Notes under the pieces: model-generated
Database searches by the model: none
What the model was told of the DNA's origin: nothing
Seen by the model: only the letters and a program-made list of their open reading frames with translations
Part shown: positions 975-58,598 of the stretch, piece by piece
How the letters are laid out: each line of letters opens with the position of its first letter
How positions within the stretch are numbered: position 1 is the first letter of the stretch
Virus record (IMG/VR): IMGVR_UViG_3300045988_130630
Strand: one strand, 5' to 3'
From: a virus
DNA: 64,000 nucleotides
Position numbers and translations under genes: made by a program

Positions 975-3900
975 ATGGCTAAACAATTAAATAGTTATTA
1001 GGTTAATTTACAGTTTACTGCTGATTCTAAATAGGCTCAACAATAGTTGAAAGATTTACAAGAATAGCTTAATAATTTAACAAAAAATGTTAACAGCTAT
1101 GGTAATTTAAGTTTATCGCGAGAAATTCAAAAAGCCTTGCCTTATGTTAGTGAATTACAAGGGATGTTAGTTACTTGTCGAACAGAGGCGGGGACTATTG
1201 ATTTAGGAAAATTTAATCAATCATTAAAAAAAAGTGGAAGAACTATTAGTGAGTATGGAGATTAGCTACAAATTTTAGGTAGAGAAGGCGAATAGGCTTT
1301 CGCTAATTTAGCAAAATCTATTTCTACAGCAGAATTACCTTTAAAAAGAAGTAATGCCTTATTAAAAGAATTTGGAACTACTTTAGCCAATACTGCCCGT
1401 TGGCAAATATCTTCAAGTATTTTACATGGTTTTATGGGAGCAGTATAGTCTGCTTATTATTATGCTTAGGATTTAAATGAATCTTTAAATAATATTCGTA
1501 TTGTTACCGGGCAAAGTGTAGATTAGATGGCAAAATTTGCAGTTTAGGCAAATAAAGCTGCTAAAGAGTTAAGCACTACAACTACTAAATATACTGACGC
1601 AGCTTTAATTTATTATCAGTAGGGTTTAAATGATGAATAGGTAAAAGAGCGCACTGATATTACTATAAAAATGGCAAATGTCGCTCGTGAAAGTGCTGAA
1701 ATTGTTTCAGACCAAATGACTGCCGTTTGGAATAACTTTTATGATGGAAGTTAGTCATTAGAGCATTATGCTGACGCTATGGTGCGTTTAGGTGCGGATA
1801 CTGCATCTAGTTCTGATGAAATTGCCGGCGGTCTGGAAAAATTCGCTGCAGTTGCTAATACAATTGGTTTAAGCTTTGATAATGCAGCTGCCGCATTAGC
1901 TACTATTACTGCTACTACTCGTCAAAGTGAAGATGTTGTAGGTACTGCTTTAAAAACGATTTTTGCTCGTATTCAAGGTTTAAAACTTGGTGAAACTTTA
2001 GAAGATGGTACTACATTAAATCAATATTCACAAGCTCTCGAAAAAGTTGGAATTAATATCAAAAATTCTAATGGTGAATTAAAAGATATGGATAATATCA
2101 TCGAAGAGATGGGTAATAAATGGTAGAGTATTGATAAAGATTAGCAAGTAGCTTTAGCGCAATAGGTAGCGGGTGTTCGTCAATACACTCAATTAATTGC
2201 TTTAATGGATCATTTTGATTATTATAAAGAAAATCTTGCTAAAGCTTAGGATGCTGATGGGTCTCTTCAAGAGCAAGCTAATGTTTATGCAGAATCTTGG
2301 GAGTCTGCCAGAGATAGAGTTACTGCTTCTTTAGAAACTATTTATGACTAGCTATTGGATGATAAAGCTTTTATTCAATTAACTAATATTTTTGCAAAAT
2401 TATTAAATGTTATTAGTTAGTTAATCAAAGCATTAGGAGGACTTCCTGGAGTTTTATCCATTATTGGAACTATTGGATTTAAGGTATTTGGGAATGATAT
2501 TACAAAATCTATTCAACGAATGATGTATAATATTAAAATTTCTTCTAAAAATGGAATAAATGAAATTGTAAAAATGCGTCAAGAAGCTAATAATAAATTA
2601 AGATCTATTATGGCAGATAATGTTGATTAGGGGCCTGATTATTCTACTCGTAGTGATATTTATACTTAGTAGGCTAATTTACAAGATGTTTTAATTTAGA
2701 AACAAAGAGAATTAATTGCTTAGGGAAGTTAGTTGACTGAAGAAGAATAGGCTTAGGCTAAATTTATTATAGATATTAATGAAAAACTTGGAGAACGAGC
2801 AATTAAGAGTGCTCAAGATTTAGAACAATAGCAAAAAATAACTCGTCAATTAGAAAGATAGCTTGAAACGCAAATTAGGATGAAACAAGGGAATGTTTAG
2901 GATTATAGATCTTAGGTAAATTCCACTAGACAGAATTTCGTTTTATCTAGCGTTTTAGATGATTTCCAAAGTGCTACAAGAGATATTGAAAATTTAGATG
3001 AATTAAAAGAAAAACTCCAACAGGTTCGTGATAAAACTTCTTAGTTGGGGATGTCTTTTAATAGTTTAGATAATATTCTTAATGGGACTTATAATACAAC
3101 TGAAGAATTTAGAAATTAGTTAAATAGTTTAATTACTATTACAGAAAATGAAGCTAATTCAGCATTTTCATAGTTACGAAGCACTTTAGAAGGTACTTAG
3201 ATGACTGAAGAATAGATTGAAAATATTATTAATTCACTACAAGATTCATATTCTTCTATGGTTATTGAAATTCTTAATAATGTATAGGCTACTAATAGAG
3301 CCACTGACGCTAATCAAGAATATATTAATACTATAAATTCTTTTAGGGGAGTATTGCCCTCAGCAGAAGCAGGAGTAGCTTCTTTTGCTTAGGGATTAAG
3401 CAGTATTGCTATGGCAATAACTTCTATAAAAGGAATTGTAGATACATGGAATAATGATGAAATTGGTATTGGAGATAAATTACTTTCAACCGTAACTGCT
3501 TTATCTATTGCCTTACCCTTATTAATGAATTCTTTAAATAAGACTTCAATTGCTAATATGGGAATGTTATCTAGTTCTTTAATGACTGCTGTTGGATTAA
3601 ATGGATAGGCCTTAGAACAAGAAGCGTTAAATTTAGTTACTTTAAAAGGAGTAGCAGCTTTTAAATTAGCAATTAAAGTATTTACTAAATCTTTAGGGCC
3701 AATAGCTTTGGTTGGAGCCGCTATTGGTGCTTTAGTGTTTATTATTAAATCTGCTATAGATGAATATAATAAAGCAGATAATAATTTAAAATCTGCTAGT
3801 GAAACAGTAGAAAAATTAACTGAAAAATACAATGAATTAACTTCATCAATTGAAGAATTTAAAAATAAAGCTAATGATTATACCACAGCCGTTGAAGCTC

Positions 3901-48100: not shown

Positions 48101-49148
48101 ATTGTCGCTATTAATTAAAGAACATATAATTGGATATTTATCAAACCAGTTTGAAGGAATAAATCCTTTCTTATAATCCTTTACTTCAACTTTTGGAATA
48201 ATTTGTTTTCTTTCTAATGAATAAAAAGAAATTTTATTTTGGATCTCTTGAGTGTTATCAAGAATCCAATTTATCAATTCTTTTCCTGTTTTATTACCTT
48301 TATCCCAATCATTAGCATAAGGTTCCATTAATTCAAAAATTTCATCACTTGTCATTAAGTAAGTAAATTTATAGAAATCGTCAACTTCTCTTTCTCCTGG
48401 TTTAGAAGTAAGATATGCTTTATGAATGGGTCTATCTTCTTTAGTTAAATAATGCGCATCTGTTCCAACTACCATTTTTAAATCAAATGCCTTGGCGATT
48501 TGATAAATTTTATGATTTACAATTATTTGCTCAGTATCAGTAGATGGCGCACATTCAAGATAAAAATCATCTTTTCCAAATACTTTAATACAAAAATTGA
48601 TATAATCAATTATTTGATTATAATATTTAGTTTGAGTTTCAATATCTTTGTTTAATTCAGCTTGGAACATTGGTAAAATACAGCTTCCGAGTTCTCCACC
48701 AATACAAGCAGTTGTTGCTATAACATGCCCTTTATATTGTTCCATTACCATTTCAAGTTCACTTTTTAAAGTAGGAACTCGTTCCATTCGTCTATCAACA
48801 TAACTATGAATCCAAGCAATAGAACTTAATTCTCTTAATGCTTTATGTCCAATGGCATCTTTAGCAATAAGAATAAAGTGGTAATATTTTTGTCCGTTAT
48901 CTCTTGTATCAGTGAGATAAATTTCATTACCAAGAGCAATAGTAAAATCAGGATTTTTTTCTCTTATTTTTTTTGCATATTGATTTACTTCCATATGTGC
49001 AGAAAGACATTCATGATCTGTAATAGCGATGCCCGATAATCCTAATTCTATTGCTTTATCAATTAGTGCTGTTGGTCGATTAATACAGTCAAAGTAAACG
49101 GAGATTCGAATACATAGTATGTGAATGGCAATTAAAATATGATCTCAT
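45158..49148 (-). CDS. DNA polymerase III alpha-subunit-like replicative polymerase (DnaE/PolC type, N-terminal PHP domain), about 1330 aa, with an apparent +1 frameshift near codon 19
   Basis: The 1278-aa track ORF begins mid-PHP-domain. ATG 49148 behind AAAGGAGGG encodes MRSYFNCHSHTMYSNLRLL then TGA. The +1 frame continues DCINRPTALIDKAIELGLSGIAITDHE, which aligns with the canonical PHP start. No in-frame TAG in the long ORF. TAA stop. Confidence 0.7.
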
Positions 49149-49467: not shown

Positions 49468-50667
49468 TTACTTCCTTATAATTACTAATTTATCACTGGC
49501 TCTAGTAGCCATAGTATATAAATACTTTTTATGTTCTTCTCGGTCAAAAGGATGATTTTCTTCAAATCCTAATACTTTTCCATATTCGCTACCTTGGGCT
49601 TTCCAACAGGTAATAGCGTAAGCATAGGAGAAATCAAGTGGAGGATCGAGGCATTGTTTATTATTTCTTAATTGATAACATTGGCTACCTGTAAGAGTCC
49701 CTTCACCGGTGATAAGTTGTTTATAATCAATTGGAGTCCCACAAAATTTATCTCCATCGCTTAAAACAATTTGAGTAAACATATAAGTAATAGGAACTTC
49801 TGAAATATAATAAGGGACTCGAATGTCTTCAGTATAAAAATCTTCAATAGTTCCAACGGTGCCATTAGTTAAAGCCCATACTCGATTCTCAGACATAAAA
49901 TCCCAGTTATTATGTAACCCAATAATTTTATCCCCTATTTGGGGGACATTAGGATCAAATCCTTTTCTCAATCGGACTACATTATTAATTTTAGTTCTTG
50001 TAGCATTTTTAGCACAAATGATCTAATCAGCCCAATCATACATTTCAGGTATAACTTGGCTTTTATCATATACTCTTACTTGTTTTCCTTCTGGACGATA
50101 AGAAATTAAAGATTTGCCTTCTCTAATCCACATTGAAAAACGAATAATTTCACTATCTTGCGCTTGGCGCATAATTTCATCGAGAAAAATATGTGGTTTA
50201 TCTAATACATGATTATTTTCATTGGGGTCTACAGGAGGCAACTGGCCAGGGTCGCCCGCCGCAATAATATAAATACCATGGGTTAGCATTAAGTCCCATA
50301 ACTTTTTAGGAAGCATTGATACTTCATCGACAACAATTACTTTATATTGGGCTAATTCACTGTTATCTTTTGGAAAAAATTTAAAAGTTCCATTAGCCAT
50401 CATTTTAGCTTTATATAAAAGTTTATGAGCAGTTGTTGCATTTGGGCAACCTTTTTGTTGAAGCACAGTCGCAGCTTTACCTGTAAATGCTACATAACAA
50501 ACTTCTTCTTCTGGATCGACATCAAGAGCAGAAATAATAAATTTAATCAAAGTGCTCTTTCCGCTTCCCGCGTATCCCGCTATACAAGTCCAACGCTCAT
50601 GGGCGTAATAGCGCTCAACCGCGATTTTCAATCCTTCTTCTTGTTTACGAGTTAATTCCATTTTCAC
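49468..50667 (-). CDS. Dda/RecD-like SF1 helicase (399 aa)
   Basis: Walker A GYAGSGKST, VVDEVSM, GDPGQLPPV, and C-terminal ITCWKAQGSEY...TMATRASDKL. Track ORFs 50023-50667 and 49468-49971 share one frame joined by a TAG at 50023-50025. Confidence 0.7.
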
Positions 50668-51705: not shown

Positions 51706-52545
51706 TTAATTAGTAAAATAATTATAAGCAGTGGTCGCATTCTTTTGTCTTTGATTTAAAGAACTTGATCCACAACGCTCATAACATTTTGCAAAAGCTT
51801 TAGCAACTTCTTTTTCATCATTTAAATTTAAAAAAGAATTAAAATTAAATCCTCTTTTATATGAAGAACCAAAAGTATTAAATTCATATTCAATAGTATT
51901 TATTAAGAATTCGCATTGTGTATCTAAATTAGAATACCAAACACTTGAGTATCCTTTACTCCATTGACAAATTCCATAATAATATTTATTAGAAGCAGTT
52001 GGCTGTAAAGATAAAGTATGACCGCCACATTCTGCCATCATATTACCTAAAATACCTGCGCAAACCGCGTCATTCCATCCTTGGTCTTTCATATAAAGCC
52101 AAATTTCTGTCGCTACTGGATAAGTAGATGATTTATCACTCCATTGAGAATTAATTTTATCTAAACGATTCTGATAAATTTCCAAATATTCATTAGCAGT
52201 TTCATATTCTTTTTTAGCAAATTCAATAATAGGATGATTTTCATCATACCCTAATGCTCTTGTTGCTTCGGCTAAGTCATGAGCACTATTCACAATCTCT
52301 TGATATTCTTGGATTAGAGATTTGAGCTCTTTACGATTAACTGTATCATTAATTTCTCTATCCATAGGCTCCATATCAATAGTTTCTTCTGGTAAGAAAT
52401 TATATACAGTTGATGATTCAGAAGGGATGTAAGCTTCCGAAAAAGTAGTAATTTCGCTATAATTTAAAGCAAGAGCTGATGTTTGTAAAATAAAAATTAA
52501 TACAAAACAAATAATACTTCCTGCTAAAATCTTATATCTTTTCAT
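51706..52545 (-). CDS. secreted or membrane-anchored peptidoglycan hydrolase with a phage tail-lysozyme-like domain (279 aa)
   Basis: N-terminal signal/TM MKRYKILAGSIICFVLIFILQTSALA. C-terminal AGILGNMMAECGG...YGICQW...CEFLINTIEYEF pattern. AGGAGG RBS. No in-frame TAG. Confidence 0.45.
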   Translation of the reverse strand: MKRYKILAGSIICFVLIFILQTSALALNYSEITTFSEAYIPSESSTVYNFLPEETIDMEPMDREINDTVNRKELKSLIQEYQEIVNSAHDLAEATRALGYDENHPIIEFAKKEYETANEYLEIYQNRLDKINSQWSDKSSTYPVATEIWLYMKDQGWNDAVCAGILGNMMAECGGHTLSLQPTASNKYYYGICQWSKGYSSVWYSNLDTQCEFLINTIEYEFNTFGSSYKRGFNFNSFLNLNDEKEVAKAFAKCYERCGSSSLNQRQKNATTAYNYFTN

Positions 52546-52717
52546 AAATGATTTCCTCCTAATAGGTTTTTAAGTCTATTAGTCGTAGTGTCAATTATTA
52601 AAAATAATAAGCAGCCCTATCTACAATTTCGTAATCTTCTATAATAATCTAAGGACTAATATTATTATTCCATATATTTCGTTCGCATTTACCAACGATA
52701 TTAATTGTCACATAACC

Positions 52718-54346
52718 CTATTCAGAATACAATTTCTCGTATTCCTCCTCGGACGACTTAAACTTGATTAAACTGATGCCATCTGGCATAGTTATCTTCA
52801 AGGTAGGATTTTTATCTTTTGACATTAAAGTTAAGTTATTTGATGCAACTTTTATTCCTTCAACAGCAATAGATGCTTCTTCTACCCCTTGGCCCCAAAG
52901 TGGTTTAAGTTGAGCGATATCAATAATATCTTTTCCAACTAAATCATTAGTGTGATAAATAAAATCAACACTATAAATTGGGGTGAAATCAAAATCTTGT
53001 AAAGCAGAATTCGCGTATTCAATAAATTTATCAAAATTATCATCAATAATACCAAATCCAAAAGCGTTAGGATGTCCTTCCGCATACATAATTAGATTTG
53101 ATTTTTGACAAAATTCTCTAAAGTCTTTAAGCGCGGATTTGTCGTATCCTCTGCCGGAGCCTTCCCAACAAATTTGTTGAGTTTCTTCATCTATTGTTTT
53201 ATTAAGAATTAAAACAGGACGTTGATATTTGCTCATTAATTGATTAGCCATTAATCCAGTCAAATTTTTATCAGCAGCAAATCCATCTAACTTAATTCCT
53301 AAGATTTTATTACTTAAAAGATTTTGATTTGCGATTATCTATTCAATTTTTTCCAAGCTAGTGTCTCTGATTTTAGTTTGCCTATTCTTGATATTAGTAC
53401 AATTACGACAAGCTTGTTCTACTCTTGTTTCTGCTTGACCTTTACATCCACGTTTTGTTGAAGGGACAAGTTCGTATCCCTTAAAATCAAGCATTGACTC
53501 GAATAGCATGAGCTTTTCTTCTTGCGTCCCAACACGAGTAGTTGCATTAACTAAAGGAGCAATATAGAAAGCTACTCCAATAGGCGTAATCTCATTATTA
53601 AAATGAAACTAATCTCTATTGATTATGCCTCTGAAGTAAGGATTGGTGATTTGTTGTAAGCCTTTATTAATTAAATGTTTTGTTTCAAAATCACGCATAT
53701 CCATCATGTCGGCCACCATTCCAAGAGCAACTAAATCTAATATATGATCCGCATATTGAACGTTCATAAGTTCATCAATATAACAACAAAACTTATAAAC
53801 CATTCCTACGCCAGATAAAGATTTGGTCGGATAATCACATAATTGATTGTTAATAATACAAGCATACTATGATATTTTATCAGCTTCATGGTGGTCTATT
53901 ACCAACACGTCAATACCATTTTTATATAAATATTCGTGTTCTAAATAATCATTTGATGAAGAATCTGGAGCAATTACTAATTTAATATCTTTATCAATAC
54001 TATCTGGTATAATTCCGTGTTGTTTTCCTGCATGGACACGATAAAAAATATTGTTTTGCACAAACGCAGGAAAAAGACAGTATAAGTAATTCATGAGCGC
54101 GGCCGCCGAAGTATAGCCATCACAATCACTATCTACCTATATAAGAACTTTGTCATTTTGTGCAATATGTTTGACGAGCATTTTTGCGCCATTTTCTATT
54201 CTATCAATAGTTGCTGGTTCTATAATGTCGTCATCAGTGGTATTAAGATAATGAGGAATATTTTGTAATTTAATCCCTCTATTGGTTAGCACCTGTTCGA
54301 CCGCTGAATACTGCGGGATGCGAGGGGCTTTTAGTTGATAGTCCAT
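52718..54346 (-). CDS. RecJ-like DHH/DHHA1 single-strand exonuclease (about 543 aa)
   Basis: Four track fragments (54137-54346, 53867-54094, 53609-53803, 52718-53263) and the 53264-53608 gap share one frame. They are joined by 5 TAG codons with no TAA/TGA. Motifs VDSDCDGYTSAAAL, VIDHH, LGMVADMM and DHHA1-like YAEGHPNAFGFG. The terminal codon 52718-52720 is TAG; read-through would add about 40 aa to TAA near 52578. Confidence 0.7.
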
Positions 54347-54733: not shown

Positions 54734-55020
54734 AAACAGCTCTCTCCTATCTTATGTCCTAATGGACAAATATGAAAAAGAACAGGAATTTCCATTTCCG
54801 TATATCCTTTTTCTAAATCTCCATTATATCTAATTATTTTTCGAGTTTCAATTCCACTTGAGATACAATTACTGGTTTTATCATAATATTTATTACATTT
54901 ATCACAATAAATACAACTCCGAAGCAAACTATCTCTTTGCTTTTTTAATCCTTCAATCTGTGCGCTTAATGAAATAATTATATCATTTACAGAGATAGGA
55001 ATATCATAATCATCATTCAT
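54730..55020 (-). CDS. Cys-rich (zinc-ribbon-like) hypothetical protein (96 aa)
   Basis: Track ORF with CIYCDKCNKYY...C and HICPLGH. ATGA overlaps with both neighbours. Confidence 0.35.
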   Translation of the reverse strand: MNDDYDIPISVNDIIISLSAQIEGLKKQRDSLLRSCIYCDKCNKYYDKTSNCISSGIETRKIIRYNGDLEKGYTEMEIPVLFHICPLGHKIGESCL

Positions 55021-56120
55021 ATAAATATCCTTTCCTTATATAATTGTAAAAATTTTTCTTTACCATCATCAATTGGTGAATCTTTGTATTTTGTAATCAT
55101 ATTTTTATCAAAAATAAAAGATATAAGCACATCATTTTTAAATTTAGTTCTAATCTTTAAAAGATTTAACTTTAAGTGTTGAAATTCTGCGTCTCCAATT
55201 TCTTGGAATTGTCTATCAAAAGCAATTATAATTTCTTGCGCGCCACTATCTAATAATAATTGAATTTGATGCGAAGAAACATTGCTTCCGCAACAAGCTA
55301 CTGATATATTGTTATTCCAACCGAAATCAGTAGCATATTTCAATACTGATTTTTCACTTTCAAAAATGATTGCTTTTTTCATTATGCCAATGGCATTTTT
55401 AGACCAATTTAATCCATATAAGTTCATTCCAAGAGGATGATTATATAATTGATTATTTATTTTCATTGGTCTATATTTCCCATATAGCTCCGCCTCGTCT
55501 TTGCACATAGTGCGTCCGCGCAAGCCTATAAATCTTCCACTAATATCATAATGAGGAATTGTAATTTGATCGGCTCCTGGATAAAAACCAATACGCGCTT
55601 TATCAATTACTTCTTGAGAAATCCCCTCATCAAGCCAAGGAACTATTTTAATATTATAATTTAATCTATTTAAAATAGAATCATCATAATCTTTTAAAAT
55701 AATTTTGTTATTTTTTAATTCAATCTCTTGAATACGAGAATAATTTGATAAAATTTTCCAATCATCTAAAGTTTTACCCATATCGTCATCTTTTATCATA
55801 CCTGATAAACCAAAACGACGAGCAACCCATAAAACTGAATCATTTAAATCAAATTCTTCATCATATTGAATTTTCATTACTTTAGAACATAATTCAAAAA
55901 TATCAAAAGTTGAATCGCATCCCGTGTAGCATTTAAATAATCCTGTATTTTCATAAAAATAAAGTTTTCTACTACCTTCTCCAGGAGGATTATGACAAAT
56001 GGTGGAAGAGAGAATCCCGAATTCTGTATATTCAGGATCTCCGCCCCATTCAATTAATAAATCATAAATATTTTCAAGCCCAAGAGCTTGACGAATTTCT
56101 GATTTATCAAATACTATCAT
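55017..56120 (-). CDS. DNA primase (DnaG-like zinc-binding plus TOPRIM), 367 aa
   Basis: CHNPPGEGSRKLYFYENTGLFKCYTGC zinc motif; TOPRIM-like IIFESEKSVLKY and AFDRQ. No in-frame TAG. TGA stop. Confidence 0.7.
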   Translation of the reverse strand: MIVFDKSEIRQALGLENIYDLLIEWGGDPEYTEFGILSSTICHNPPGEGSRKLYFYENTGLFKCYTGCDSTFDIFELCSKVMKIQYDEEFDLNDSVLWVARRFGLSGMIKDDDMGKTLDDWKILSNYSRIQEIELKNNKIILKDYDDSILNRLNYNIKIVPWLDEGISQEVIDKARIGFYPGADQITIPHYDISGRFIGLRGRTMCKDEAELYGKYRPMKINNQLYNHPLGMNLYGLNWSKNAIGIMKKAIIFESEKSVLKYATDFGWNNNISVACCGSNVSSHQIQLLLDSGAQEIIIAFDRQFQEIGDAEFQHLKLNLLKIRTKFKNDVLISFIFDKNMITKYKDSPIDDGKEKFLQLYKERIFI

Positions 56121-56306: not shown

Positions 56307-57011
56307 TTAAATTAAATCATTTAATGAAATATTATCTTTATTTAAATATGAAATTCTAATTAAAGGAATTCCATGTTCTTTACAATAATTATTTTTTAAT
56401 TCATCACATTTTTGCTAATACATAATTTTTTCTTTAGTATTCCATCCTCCAATATAATTTGTTGAATGTGTTTCTCCATCATATTCGATTAATTTTTTTA
56501 CCATATTATCATCATCTAATATAGCAAAATCAAATCTTAAATAACCATTTTTAGGAGATAATAAATCAGAAAAAACGTATTCTTTTTTATAACTAATATT
56601 ATTTTTCTTAAGGATATTTTCTATAATATATTCCCCTTGCGATTGTTTCAGGCAACCACAAGACATAGTAGTTTTTTGTTTTAAACTATTTGAAGATACT
56701 TCTGTAATTTTTCCACATTCACATTGGCATTCCCAAATAATACCTCTTTCTTTAGTCCTTTTTCCGCTATCTTTTAAAACTGTTAATTTACCAAATTTCT
56801 AGCCCACTAAATTATTTGAAATTTTTTCTTTGCGTAAGCACCCACAAGATTGAGTTAAACCAGAAATTAAGTTTGCTCTTTGTATACTTTTTATTGTGCC
56901 ACAAGAACATTGACAAATCCAATATTGTTGTTTGGATTTTCTTTCTGTATCTAATTTCAATACTGTTAATCTATTAAAAATTTGTCCTGTTAAATCTTTC
57001 ATTAAATTCAT
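56307..57011 (-). CDS. free-standing homing-endonuclease-like protein: two tandem zinc-binding N-terminal modules plus a C-terminal PD-(D/E)xK / DUF559-like nuclease domain (234 aa)
   Basis: Track ORFs 56799-57011 and 56415-56666 plus the gap form one frame joined by 3 TAG. Modules IFNRLTVLK..WICQCSCG..SCGC and KFGKLTVLK..WECQCECG..SCGC. C-terminal GYLRFDFAIL...IEYDGETH...IRISYL. TAA stop at 56307-56309. Lies between the primase and dnaB genes. Confidence 0.55.
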
Positions 57012-57065: not shown

Positions 57066-58598
57066 TCAAAAAGCACTTTCTTCTTCAAGAGTAATTTTTA
57101 TATCATCAATAGGAACAAGTTCATAAGCATATGTAGTACAAAACATAGGAATAATTCTACAAGTTCCTAAATCTGCTTTACACCATAAAATAACTCCTTT
57201 ATACCTACCACGTCTATTTTTATAAACAGACATTTTAATAGTTGGAGTATCAAATAATTTTGTGTTTAGTATTTTTTCTAATGAAATTAAGTCATCATCT
57301 TGAACATTTAAAAGAATTGATCCATAATCTACTTTATCTGCGATAGATTTTGCTCCACGCAAAAGATTCTGGTCAGGAGTTTTAGAATCAACATAATCAC
57401 CATTTAACTGTGTTGCTGACATAATAAAAACACCGTATTGATTACAAATATCTTTTAATTTGTTAGATAACATAAAAAGTATATTATCTTCACGAAGTTT
57501 TACTCCACCACTACGACGAGTAATTTCTTCAAGAATTTTCATACTTGTATGAATATAGTCATGAAATATATATTTTACATCGTGATCTCGGATGCCTTTT
57601 TTGATTTCATTTTCGACATCCTGTAATGAAAAATCAGGTAATTCACGAATATACAATGGACTATCTTTAAGAATTTTCGCGGCTTCTATTACTCGTTCTT
57701 TTTCATTTCCTTGATATTCATTATAAATAATATGTTCTTCATTCACATTAGAAAGAAAAGCAAGCATCATTGTTTGAATTTCATTTTTATCTTGCTCTGT
57801 AGTTATATATAATACTGGTTCTTGAATTCCGTTTTTAATCCAACTTCCAAAAGTATCATCATATATTTTATTACAAGCAATATAGCACGAATCCGCAATC
57901 ATAGAACGAGTTTTACCTACACCGGTGGCTGCGGAGCGCAAGTAAAACTTTTTAAGTCTCGCTCCACGAGTAACTGTATTAATTAATGGCCCATATAGAG
58001 GACTTCCTGCTATTGGATGTTGCTCTAAATCATCAAGCAATTCAAAAATTCCATCACCTGCTTGAACTGCAACTCCTTCAACATCATTTACATATTCATA
58101 TTTAATTTGTTCTATGCGGTCATCAATTAATTGTGCGATATGCTCTAATGAAGAATTATCAAGATTATCTTCTTGTAATTGTTTTTTTTCAGTATCTAAA
58201 ATATTATCAGGGTCATAAATAAAAGAAACATCAATGCCATATCTATCATAGGCGCGAAGTAGAGACATTTTTTTTAAACGACCATAATAATAATCAAATG
58301 ATAAAGGTTTCGCATTTTCAGAAACTTTTAATAACCATTCTTCGCCTTTATTAACTTTAAATGTAGCTTCATATTTAGGGCGAGAAGAAAGAAAATCACT
58401 AATATTTTCTAAAGTAATTTTCTAAGCTCCTAATTCATGAATTTTATATATTGCTCCAAAAACAATTCTATGAAATTCATCAGCAAAGTCTTCATCAGTT
58501 ATTGTATATCTATCAGTAAAATCCAAAAGCTAAGGAGTATTATATACGCACCCTATAACTTGTGTAATCGCTGTTGGGTCTACATATTTACTCGGCAT
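57066..58598 (-). CDS. dnaB: DnaB-like replicative helicase (510 aa)
   Basis: The track ORF (400 aa) carries the RecA-like domain (SAATGVGKT, MSATQLNG). ATG 58598 behind AGGAGGA adds the DnaB N-terminal domain (DPTAITQVIGCVYNTP-TAG-LLD...) through 2 TAG codons. Confidence 0.8.

Follow-up and report, generated by a model that had tools for sequence, protein, structure and literature searches.

Uneven use of in-frame TAG codons in a code-15 gut phage, most simply read as depletion from early genes

Why are in-frame TAG codons crowded in one half of a phage genome and rare or absent in the other? We addressed this question in a 64,000-nucleotide stretch of viral DNA, IMG/VR record IMGVR_UViG_3300045988_130630 (hereafter the window, meaning this whole stretch), in which TAG is common within genes for virion proteins and scarce within genes for DNA replication. 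A reading made from the sequence alone had interpreted this pattern as gating, whereby translation of late genes is held back until a phage-encoded suppressor is produced. The window is approximately one third of the genome of a ~195-kb tailed gut phage with a G+C content (GC) of 30%, which uses genetic code 15. The difference in TAG load between the tail and lysis genes and the replication genes is real, strong, conserved and far beyond chance. The simplest reading is that TAG is a nearly neutral glutamine (Gln) codon in late genes and has been purged from early ones, so that positive selection for TAG is not needed.

With TAA and TGA as the only stops, 51 genes were delimited in the window (GC 29.8%). 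Reading TAG as a sense codon raises the summed length of stop-to-stop open reading frames (ORFs) of at least 150 amino acids (aa) from 10,548 aa under the standard code to 20,018 aa, versus merely 11,259 aa when TGA is made a sense codon. Genes are interrupted in frame by TAG only, never by TAA or TGA, and TAG is unused as a terminator: genes stop at TAA (n = 39) or TGA (n = 12), including 16 out of 16 TAG-free genes. Pfam profiles continue across the in-frame TAGs of the anaerobic ribonucleotide reductase NrdD and a RecD/PIF1-like helicase, and the tail tape measure protein (TMP) is matched by PHROG families as a single 2767-aa protein once its TAGs are read through. The genes fall into two arms. 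Those on the + strand (319-39017) encode virion and lysis proteins, namely, TMP, tail, baseplate and fibre proteins, a 2581-aa virion protein and a holin. Those on the - strand (39052-63767) encode replication and nucleotide metabolism proteins plus two homing endonucleases, as judged from Pfam and PHROG matches.

Counted gene by gene under translation table 15, TAG density is not uniform. The + arm has 188 in-frame TAGs in 12,235 codons (15.4 per 1000), with 21 of 22 genes containing at least one, versus 31 in 7,670 codons (4.0 per 1000) and 15 of 28 genes in the - arm (from 39052). Since TMP is rich in Gln, counts were normalised to Gln-type codons (TAG+CAA+CAG). The TAG share of these codons is 0.346 in the + arm and 0.109 in the - arm. 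The arms differ in TAG versus CAA+CAG by Fisher test (odds ratio (OR) 4.3, p = 1.8e-14), also without TMP and the adjacent large tail gene at 9438-12710 (OR 2.9, p = 1.8e-6), and at the level of genes by Mann-Whitney test (p = 0.003). The asymmetry that the sequence-only reading had described, late genes rich and early genes poor, is thus borne out, and all of its per-gene counts but the TMP total were accurate. There are exactly 13 TAGs in the first 268 codons of TMP, and 26 in the 2581-aa protein, where dozens had been announced. The polymerase (0/1328 codons), primase-like gene (0/367), Sak4-like gene (0/331), dUTPase (0/172) and hydrolase (0/279) are indeed free of TAG; NrdD (1/779), the helicase (1/397) and DnaB (2/510) have the few expected, and the RecJ-like (6/582) and RuvC-like (3/147) proteins do need read-through. 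TMP has many TAGs, as claimed, though 83 rather than on the order of a hundred, and calling the late genes saturated went too far: TAG accounts for 42% of Gln codons in TMP and 35% across the + arm.

The identity of the encoded residue was established from relatives. We fetched 329 related loci (labelled L below), mostly from IMG/VR contigs of up to ~197 kb; several are 95-98% identical to the window at the nucleotide level. At the window TAG sites, relatives with at least 95% protein identity have TAG 1348 times, CAG or CAA 66 times and another codon 4 times. Where identity falls below 70%, these sites align most often with Gln, followed by Glu and Lys, and they are Gln-like no less frequently than true CAA sites. 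Thus, TAG encodes Gln, which corresponds to genetic code 15. TAG positions are also kept in dozens of independent contigs. The possibility that single TAGs close to 3' ends are former stops was rejected, as the standard-code homologues that were checked encode protein beyond them.

The contrast between genes is as conserved as the sites themselves. DNA polymerase III (Pol III) alpha is free of TAG in recoded relatives from 46 to 99% identity, save for one locus with a single TAG, and its CAA/CAG sites do vary. TMP contains 50-88 TAGs in all recoded relatives and none in standard-code ones. The latter share 56-60% Pol III alpha identity and the same synteny and show no TAG gain, and some further relatives may be TGA-recoded. 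The RecJ-like exonuclease is 74-76% identical to the same relatives as Pol III alpha, yet has 5-8 TAGs in every recoded lineage.

An asymmetry of this kind may reflect enrichment in late genes or depletion from early ones. The leucine (Leu) codons CTG and TTG differ by the same first-position C/T transition and have the same third base as CAG and TAG, and provide an internal mutational control. In the late arm, TAG/(TAG+CAG) is 0.85 versus 0.93 for TTG/(TTG+CTG), which is not a significant difference (p = 0.07); the same holds for TMP (0.89 versus 0.96, p = 0.45). In the early arm, the corresponding values are 0.48 and 0.91 (p = 2e-8), and in ten core replication genes (6 TAG, 20 CAG) they are 0.23 and 0.95 (p = 3e-10). 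Since late TAG matches the Leu control and early TAG falls far below it, the asymmetry is a depletion from early genes. A three-state equilibrium model (CAA-CAG-TAG) predicts a neutral TAG share of 0.63-0.79, above the 0.35-0.42 observed, TMP included. Furthermore, CAG sites of the window read TAG in close relatives in 13% of comparisons for late genes versus 0.9% for early genes (comparisons, not independent events). Gating as an adaptive function was therefore not upheld: TAG has been purged from early genes, and there is no late enrichment over the Leu control.

Genes beyond the window were read in contig IMGVR_UViG_3300045988_118866 (contig 118866), which shares ~95% nucleotide identity with it. 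In this contig, the replication-arm strand continues with TAG-free gyrB, gyrA and ligase genes, and next to them, on the same strand, lies an endolysin gene (Phage_lysozyme2 and Amidase_2 domains) with 8 TAGs in 433 codons. The late strand upstream of the window encodes the large terminase (TerL; 8 TAGs) and portal (11 TAGs), as well as a three-gene TAG-free block at the position expected for the capsid; the putative capsid protein encoded there has no Pfam or PDB sequence match. TAG load thus follows gene function, and strand is a mere proxy for it. The proposed split of the strands into late (+) and replication (-) genes stands, with strand as a proxy only, given the TAG-rich endolysin on the replication strand and the TAG-free block on the late strand.

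Three side observations concern these outer regions. In locus L195 (8641-10396), the 8-TAG endolysin is followed by a TAG-free 131-aa holin-like membrane protein; since this pair is separate from the window holin (34671-35081), lysis functions appear to be split over two loci. The recoded large terminase (L208:6061-7803) is matched by two families annotated as 'unknown function', phrog_15503 in its N-terminal part and phrog_24618 in its C-terminal part, which are probably terminase halves produced by standard-code gene calling of recoded phages. Finally, upstream of the late arm there is an island with a GC of 40-54% (L208:300-2500 and L287:9700-20477, ~152-165 kb in contig 118866). It has small TAG-free ORFs, several of them after a repeated TGTTATACTATAAT-like box, and was found in two contigs only; the GC-rich stretch in L208 has no Rfam family. 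The island could be an immediate-early region or a foreign insertion.

The features of the late arm of the window, with their TAG counts, are the following.

975-9278, + strand: TMP, 2767 codons, 83 TAGs (30 per 1000; 42% of Gln codons); PHROG TMP families, E = 7e-65.
9438-12710, + strand: large tail protein, 1090 codons, 25 TAGs (66% of Gln codons, the highest share among large genes); weak minor-tail PHROG match.
12911-15790, 15768-18074 and 18432-20708, + strand: three baseplate/tail genes with 9, 8 and 9 TAGs; phrog_1887 (tail protein) and other matches.
18088-18432, + strand: small ORF within the baseplate/tail block (12911-20708), 1 TAG.
20797-21378, + strand: fibre-like gene, 2 TAGs, TTG start after AAAGGAG as read from the sequence.
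21393-23054, + strand: TAG-free late gene, 553 codons, 16 CAA, TTG start after AAGGAG.
23173-30918, + strand: virion protein, 2581 codons, 26 TAGs; phrog_14959, E = 1.5e-51.
From 31390, within the block 31390-35081, + strand: three fibre-like genes with 3, 2 and 3 TAGs.
34671-35081, + strand: holin, 1 TAG among 12 Gln codons; phrog_13712, E = 7e-38.
35080-35123, no strand: bidirectional terminator-like hairpin of 19 bp between the holin and the regulator gene.
35126-35842, - strand: response-regulator/LytTR-like gene running opposite to the late arm that surrounds it, 1 TAG; Pfam Response_reg and a weak LytTR match.
36086-39017, + strand: cluster of small genes.
39001-39047, no strand: bidirectional terminator-like hairpin of 20 bp at the point where both arms converge.

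The densest TAG usage in the window is in the small gene at 36086-36532 (7 TAGs in 148 codons, or 47 per 1000). A terminator-like hairpin at ~20718-20748 precedes the fibre-like gene 20797-21378, whose N-terminus resembles that of the downstream TTG-initiated gene 21393-23054. The latter has no match in Pfam, in PHROG or, by tblastn, among GenBank phages. Two near-consensus sigma-70-like promoters are located upstream of the regulator gene, at 35945-35895. TMP alleles are only 53-59% identical among genomes that are 95-99% identical elsewhere (975-9278 compared with L048-L067), and each of them retains 50-88 TAGs; this divergence suggests that TMP undergoes allelic replacement or very fast evolution.

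The replication arm, read from its distal end, is composed as follows.

From 39052, - strand: membrane protein with no function assigned, at the distal end of the arm, 3 TAGs.
39558-40001, - strand: RuvC-like resolvase, 147 codons, 3 TAGs; PHROG match.
Within 40103-42197, - strand: dUTPase, 172 codons, TAG-free, then two small TAG-free ORFs.
41130-41690, - strand: gene of no assigned function, 1 TAG at codon 3.
41703-42197, - strand: NrdG, 1 TAG.
42194-44533, - strand: NrdD, 779 codons, 1 TAG at 43862-43864; Pfam NRDD.
44590-45195, - strand: guanylate-kinase-like gene, 1 TAG, which falls within the conserved region at codon 162; phrog_1815 covers residues 11-188.
45158-49144, - strand: Pol III alpha, 1328 codons, 49 Gln codons, TAG-free; Pfam PHP, DNA_pol3_alpha, finger and HHH_6.
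49468-50661, - strand: RecD/PIF1-like helicase, 397 codons, 1 TAG at 50023-50025; Pfam AAA_30 and UvrD_C_2.
51706-52545, - strand: secreted Phage_lysozyme2-type hydrolase, 279 codons, TAG-free; Pfam match.
52598-54346, - strand: RecJ-like exonuclease, 582 codons, 6 TAGs, the most in the replication arm; phrog_2484, E = 3e-153.
55017-56120, - strand: primase-like gene with a zinc-finger-like cysteine motif and no Pfam match, 367 codons, TAG-free.
56307-57011, - strand: HNH homing endonuclease between the primase-like gene and DnaB, 2 TAGs; phrog_374.
57066-58598, - strand: DnaB-like helicase, 510 codons, 2 TAGs at codons 23 and 59; Pfam DnaB_C.
59257-61347, - strand: AAA_24/Sak4-like gene (331 codons; Pfam AAA_24) and an adjacent 315-codon gene, both TAG-free.
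From 61814, within the block 61814-63767, - strand: gene matching phrog_6721, 2 TAGs, and a small TAG-free ORF.
62754-63767, - strand: GIY-YIG homing endonuclease, 4 TAGs.

The absence of TAG from Pol III alpha has a probability of 0.001 under the TAG share of the - arm itself and of 1e-9 under that of the + arm. Nearly all relatives likewise lack TAG in the primase-like gene. Codon usage is atypical in the Sak4-like gene and its neighbour, which have a GC of 0.38-0.39, AAG in 59-70% of lysine codons and are rich in CAG; the neighbour matches no family. Both are probably very highly expressed early proteins. The few TAGs of other replication genes lie in functionally relevant places. The NrdD TAG is in the catalytic domain and splits the NRDD profile between positions 97 and 104, and that of the helicase falls between the AAA_30 and UvrD_C_2 matches; because these TAGs are inside Pfam domains, read-through is required for function. 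Homologues of the guanylate-kinase-like gene run past its TAG site. Both DnaB TAGs are in a region conserved in relatives, which align over all 510 residues and have no TAG there.

Only a few intergenic sigma-70-like matches look convincing. In the replication arm, two sites were noted, a perfect TTGACA-17-TATAAT with an upstream TG at 41725-41697 (- strand), before the gene 41130-41690, and a terminator directly followed by TTGACT-17-TATAAT at 59240-59185 (- strand), ahead of the DnaB operon. Both are candidate host-RNA-polymerase promoters of this arm. The Pol III alpha (45158-49144) and NrdD (42194-44578) ORFs have no ATG near the conserved N-terminus start and likely use non-ATG starts, as do the two TTG-initiated genes of the fibre region.

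Read-through of TAG calls for a suppressor tRNA. The window contains no tRNA detectable by ARAGORN and no other RNA known to Rfam, and an ARAGORN search that allowed introns and lowered thresholds gave only implausible matches inside genes. Contig 118866, walked from 35.5 to 164.6 kb (~129 kb), has one tRNA array (Ser, Leu, Gly, Lys, Cys; sister contigs add further members) on the replication-arm strand, ~48 kb upstream of the polymerase. Approximately 9 kb further upstream of the array, a 90-nt tRNA(CUA) is found beside tRNA-Tyr in the ENA contig L325 (583-672). L325 shares 93.5% identity over 4.7 kb with a sister contig of 164 kb, itself 96% identical to contig 118866. A copy identical at 89 of 90 positions (L326:1206-1295) is present in CAMELE010000001.1 (163,874 bp), within an array Leu-His-Arg-Ile-Pro-Val-Sup-Tyr that is 97-99% identical to L325. 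Labelled 'MAG: uncultured Mollicutes bacterium' in its record, this contig matches sister phage contigs in size and is probably a phage genome mis-binned as a bacterium. The arrays with tRNA(CUA) are co-oriented with the replication arm. The tRNA folds as a cloverleaf with a U1·U72 mismatch, G73 and a variable region of ~21 nt and, unlike the other tRNAs of these arrays, has no encoded CCA. It is homologous to the 88-nt Sup-CTA of phage phAss-1 (62445-62532; L328:12445-12532), sharing 70 of 90 nt with compensatory changes in the acceptor stem. The clade thus encodes a suppressor, and we infer its location in the window's own genome. The phage-encoded suppressor postulated by the sequence-only reading therefore exists in the same species complex and on the replication-arm strand, but is found neither in the window nor in a contig that also bears window genes. 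The idea that suppression begins before or during replication fits the need of NrdD, DnaB, the helicase and the RecJ-like protein for read-through; it also agrees with phAss-1, where nrdD is immediately preceded on the replication strand by two Sup-CTA genes, an arrangement that fits suppression starting with, not after, replication-gene expression.

Two other elements were noticed near the arrays. A RAGATH-33 RNA (RF03102, 123-127 bits) is located inside the phage tRNA array just after tRNA-Leu(taa) (L309:2375-2503, L312:1778-1906 and L314:59-187). Between the tRNA array and the lysis genes lies a TAG-free gene of ~500 codons (L289:4548-6199) for an RNA-ligase-like protein with an N-terminal tRNA-binding-like motif, which may act in tRNA repair.

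We consider it probable that TAG has been purged from early genes of this ~195-kb code-15 phage and becomes near-neutral once the phage tRNA(CUA) is abundant. What has to be explained is observed directly, namely, recoding, TAG as Gln, a conserved asymmetry, depletion relative to the control and a suppressor tRNA in the clade. We infer the timing of expression from gene function only, and likewise the time of suppressor accumulation, the charging enzyme and any inactivation of release factor 1 (RF1). Early in infection, host ribosomes with active RF1 would complete only TAG-free proteins, that is, the replisome core and many small early proteins, and purifying selection would remove TAG from Pol III alpha, the primase-like gene, the Sak4-like gene and its neighbour, gyrase and ligase. 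The tRNA array, including tRNA(CUA), would be transcribed from the replication-arm strand upstream of the replication arm; because of this position of the suppressor, read-through should rise in early-middle infection. As tRNA(CUA) accumulates, genes with one or two TAGs (NrdD, DnaB, helicase) would become productive first and those with many TAGs later. AT-biased C-to-T mutation would then fill the later-translated genes with TAG as a near-neutral synonym of CAG; such users would include tail, baseplate, fibre, terminase, portal, endolysin and homing endonuclease genes as well as those for the RecJ-like and RuvC-like proteins. If the full-length yield is p^n, where p is read-through per codon and n the TAG count, a 10% yield of TMP with its 83 TAGs is calculated to require p ≥ 0.973, and a 50% yield p ≥ 0.992. 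Since at least 97% per codon is needed for even 10% yield of TMP, late read-through would be almost complete. As a by-product, TAG-rich proteins could not be completed early.

Several points weigh against timing as the sole explanation, or against links in this scheme. Both arms are internally heterogeneous in TAG load (chi-square p = 1e-6 and 2e-3). The late gene 21393-23054 is TAG-free, which has P ~0.001 under the + arm TAG share, and so is the putative capsid block on the late strand; conversely, the RecJ-like gene in the replication arm has 6 TAGs. The Leu control assumes that selection acts alike on Leu and Gln codons. Scans for sigma-70 promoters returned 137 matches versus 113±9 in shuffled sequence and 106 versus 100±10, and because matches barely exceed the shuffled background, early operons cannot be defined by such scans. 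The CUA anticodon is absent from the tRNA array and the rest of the walked ~129 kb of contig 118866, and the suppressor is linked to the window by a chain of 93-97% nucleotide identities, not through a contig that shares window genes. Its long variable arm is atypical for tRNA-Gln, and the Gln assignment rests on the alignments, not on the tRNA.

Adaptive gating, in which TAG would be positively selected in late and lysis genes to block their premature translation until the code switch, is a possible but doubtful alternative. The TAG-rich genes do include ones that would be harmful or wasteful early, such as the endolysin (8 TAGs, in the relative), terminase, portal and homing endonucleases, and both phAss-1 and the eight clades of Borges et al. 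show this pattern too. However, late TAG/(TAG+CAG) does not exceed the Leu analogue and the TAG share stays below equilibrium; the window holin has one TAG among its 12 Gln codons, the putative capsid block and gene 21393-23054 have none, and early depletion alone suffices to produce the asymmetry.

The other contender is expression level. If each TAG loses some ribosomes to RF1, the codon would be avoided wherever ribosome flux or full-length yield matters most, whatever the timing, and the TAG count would track how much of a protein is required; as a replacement for timing we regard this translation cost as unlikely, though not negligible. In its favour, TAG is missing from two codon-biased genes, the Sak4-like one and its neighbour, and from the putative capsid block of the relative; a gene of this block has a phAss-1 homologue that is TAG-free and codon-biased. 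In phAss-1, TAG was reported in TerL and TMP of four signature proteins (Babkin et al., PMC10607447), and low-copy virion proteins (TMP, portal, terminase) are TAG-rich. On the other hand, Pol III alpha, the primase-like protein, gyrase and ligase are TAG-free although high expression is not expected for them, and the block is only putatively capsid. Probably, translation cost acts along a second axis, on which the most abundant proteins avoid TAG, and adds to the explanation by timing without replacing it.

It is conceivable, although we think it rather improbable, that the TAG count serves as a graded timer and dose dial, not as a binary switch between early and late, setting the order and stoichiometry of proteins through (read-through)^n. 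The observed counts run from 0 in the putative capsid and replisome proteins, 1-2 in NrdD, DnaB and the helicase, 6-11 in the RecJ-like protein, terminase, portal and endolysin, and 25-26 in fibre and 2581-aa proteins, to 83 in TMP. Such a timer, if true, would partly replace transcriptional control of late genes.

A historical explanation, with the replication module either a recent import from a standard-code phage or too slow in its evolution to have gained TAG, is very unlikely. Standard-code relatives of the same architecture do exist, and TMP alleles are hypervariable, indicating fast turnover. Yet Pol III alpha lacks TAG in recoded relatives down to 46% identity, with changes at its CAA/CAG sites, and the module resembles the rest of the genome in GC and codon usage. 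Slow evolution is further contradicted by the RecJ-like protein, which is as conserved as Pol III alpha (74-76%) and has 5-8 TAGs; it was mainly this comparison that led us to reject both slow evolution and recent import. Mutational asymmetry between the strands, linked to replication, is less probable still. Out-of-frame TAG is ~1.5 times commoner in + arm genes (53 versus 35 per 1000 codons), but the in-frame difference is 3.8-fold, TAG-rich genes (RecJ-like, homing endonucleases, endolysin of the relative) occur on the replication strand and TAG-free genes on the late strand, and TTG/(TTG+CTG) is alike on both arms (0.93 versus 0.91); the equal Leu control contradicts this explanation. That the TAGs are true stops in degraded or misassembled sequence can be dismissed, for nothing beyond the raw in-frame stops suggests it, whereas only TAG interrupts genes, read-through restores full-length homologues and the sites are kept across dozens of contigs.

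The phenomenon itself is already published for several phage groups. In the late-biased recoding model, structural and lysis genes are recoded while replication remains largely standard; the pattern spans eight clades with low GC, standard-code close relatives and suppressor tRNAs, had been noted earlier for crAss-like and Lak phages, and the genomes of the Jade, Sapphire and Agate clades, 150-210 kb in size, have their recoded modules scattered (Borges et al., bioRxiv 10.1101/2021.08.26.457843). Proteomic validation in crAss-like phages is reported by Peters et al. (PMC9523058). Our phage has in common with these phages low GC, TAG aligned with Gln, standard-code relatives within the clade, recoded structural and lysis genes, a largely standard replication core, recoded modules scattered over a genome of this size class, a suppressor tRNA in the clade and homing endonucleases that carry TAG. 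It differs in that no 'code-change module' of release factor or aminoacyl-tRNA synthetase was seen in the 64-kb window and ~130 kb of relatives, and the preferential recoding of lysis genes does not extend to the window holin, with TAG at 1 of 12 Gln codons. Beyond that model, the pattern is described here as early depletion relative to a mutational control.

The closest described system is phAss-1 (OQ749652), a complete 136-kb genome of the 'Caudoviricetes code 15 clade'. Of its four signature proteins, TerL, TMP, the major capsid protein and Pol III alpha, the first two are noted to contain TAG (Babkin et al. 2023, PMC10607447). Re-analysed here under code 15, it has 15.3 TAGs per 1000 codons in the virion arm versus 3.4 in the other arm, with 110 in TMP and none in Pol III alpha and NrdD. 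The Leu control gives the same picture of depletion: in the late arm, TAG/(TAG+CAG) and TTG/(TTG+CTG) are both 0.55, and in the early arm they are 0.14 and 0.44. The homologue of the capsid-block gene has no TAG, 15 CAG versus 0 CAA and 14 CTG versus 1 TTG. In both phages, virion genes occupy a + strand arm, and Pol III alpha, NrdD/NrdG and the tRNA arrays lie in a - strand arm; TerL and TMP contain TAG but Pol III alpha does not, and one putative capsid protein is 50% identical between the two. However, our phage has a GC of 30% versus 44.5% and a genome of ~195 kb versus 136 kb, and the window has no Sup-CTA upstream of nrdD. With no megablast match and similarity at the protein level only, it falls outside the genus Phassvirus and represents a different genus at least.

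Other similarities are remote. A megablast search with 40 kb of the window returned no match among GenBank phages. SPbeta-like Bacillus phages, with a YorL-type Pol III alpha, and Enterococcus phages EF1 and VRE9 provide the best annotated matches for the polymerase (38-39% identity; SPbeta YorL is best, at 38.6%) and for the putative capsid protein (~40%); unlike our phage, all of these use the standard code and have smaller genomes. These matches suggest a host range within the Bacillota, and the host is probably a member of this phylum. A tRNA array encoded on the early strand, together with late genes whose codons are read by phage tRNAs, recalls the temporal tuning of codons and tRNAs of the T4 type. 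In T4, however, the codons are sense codons, whereas here the codon is a host terminator, and translation without suppression truncates the protein rather than slowing its synthesis.

What is new is a lineage of ~195-kb phages without a representative in GenBank phage records, together with a result of depletion, not enrichment, which is replicated in phAss-1, late genes that are free of TAG and a conserved suppressor tRNA with a long variable arm. The biological interest of the depletion result is modest: comparing TAG/CAG with TTG/CTG sharpens the published model and does not overturn it. Standard-code gene calling fragments the virion half of such genomes, and the practical lesson of this clean and well-delimited example of code 15, with its many close and distant relatives, is one of annotation.

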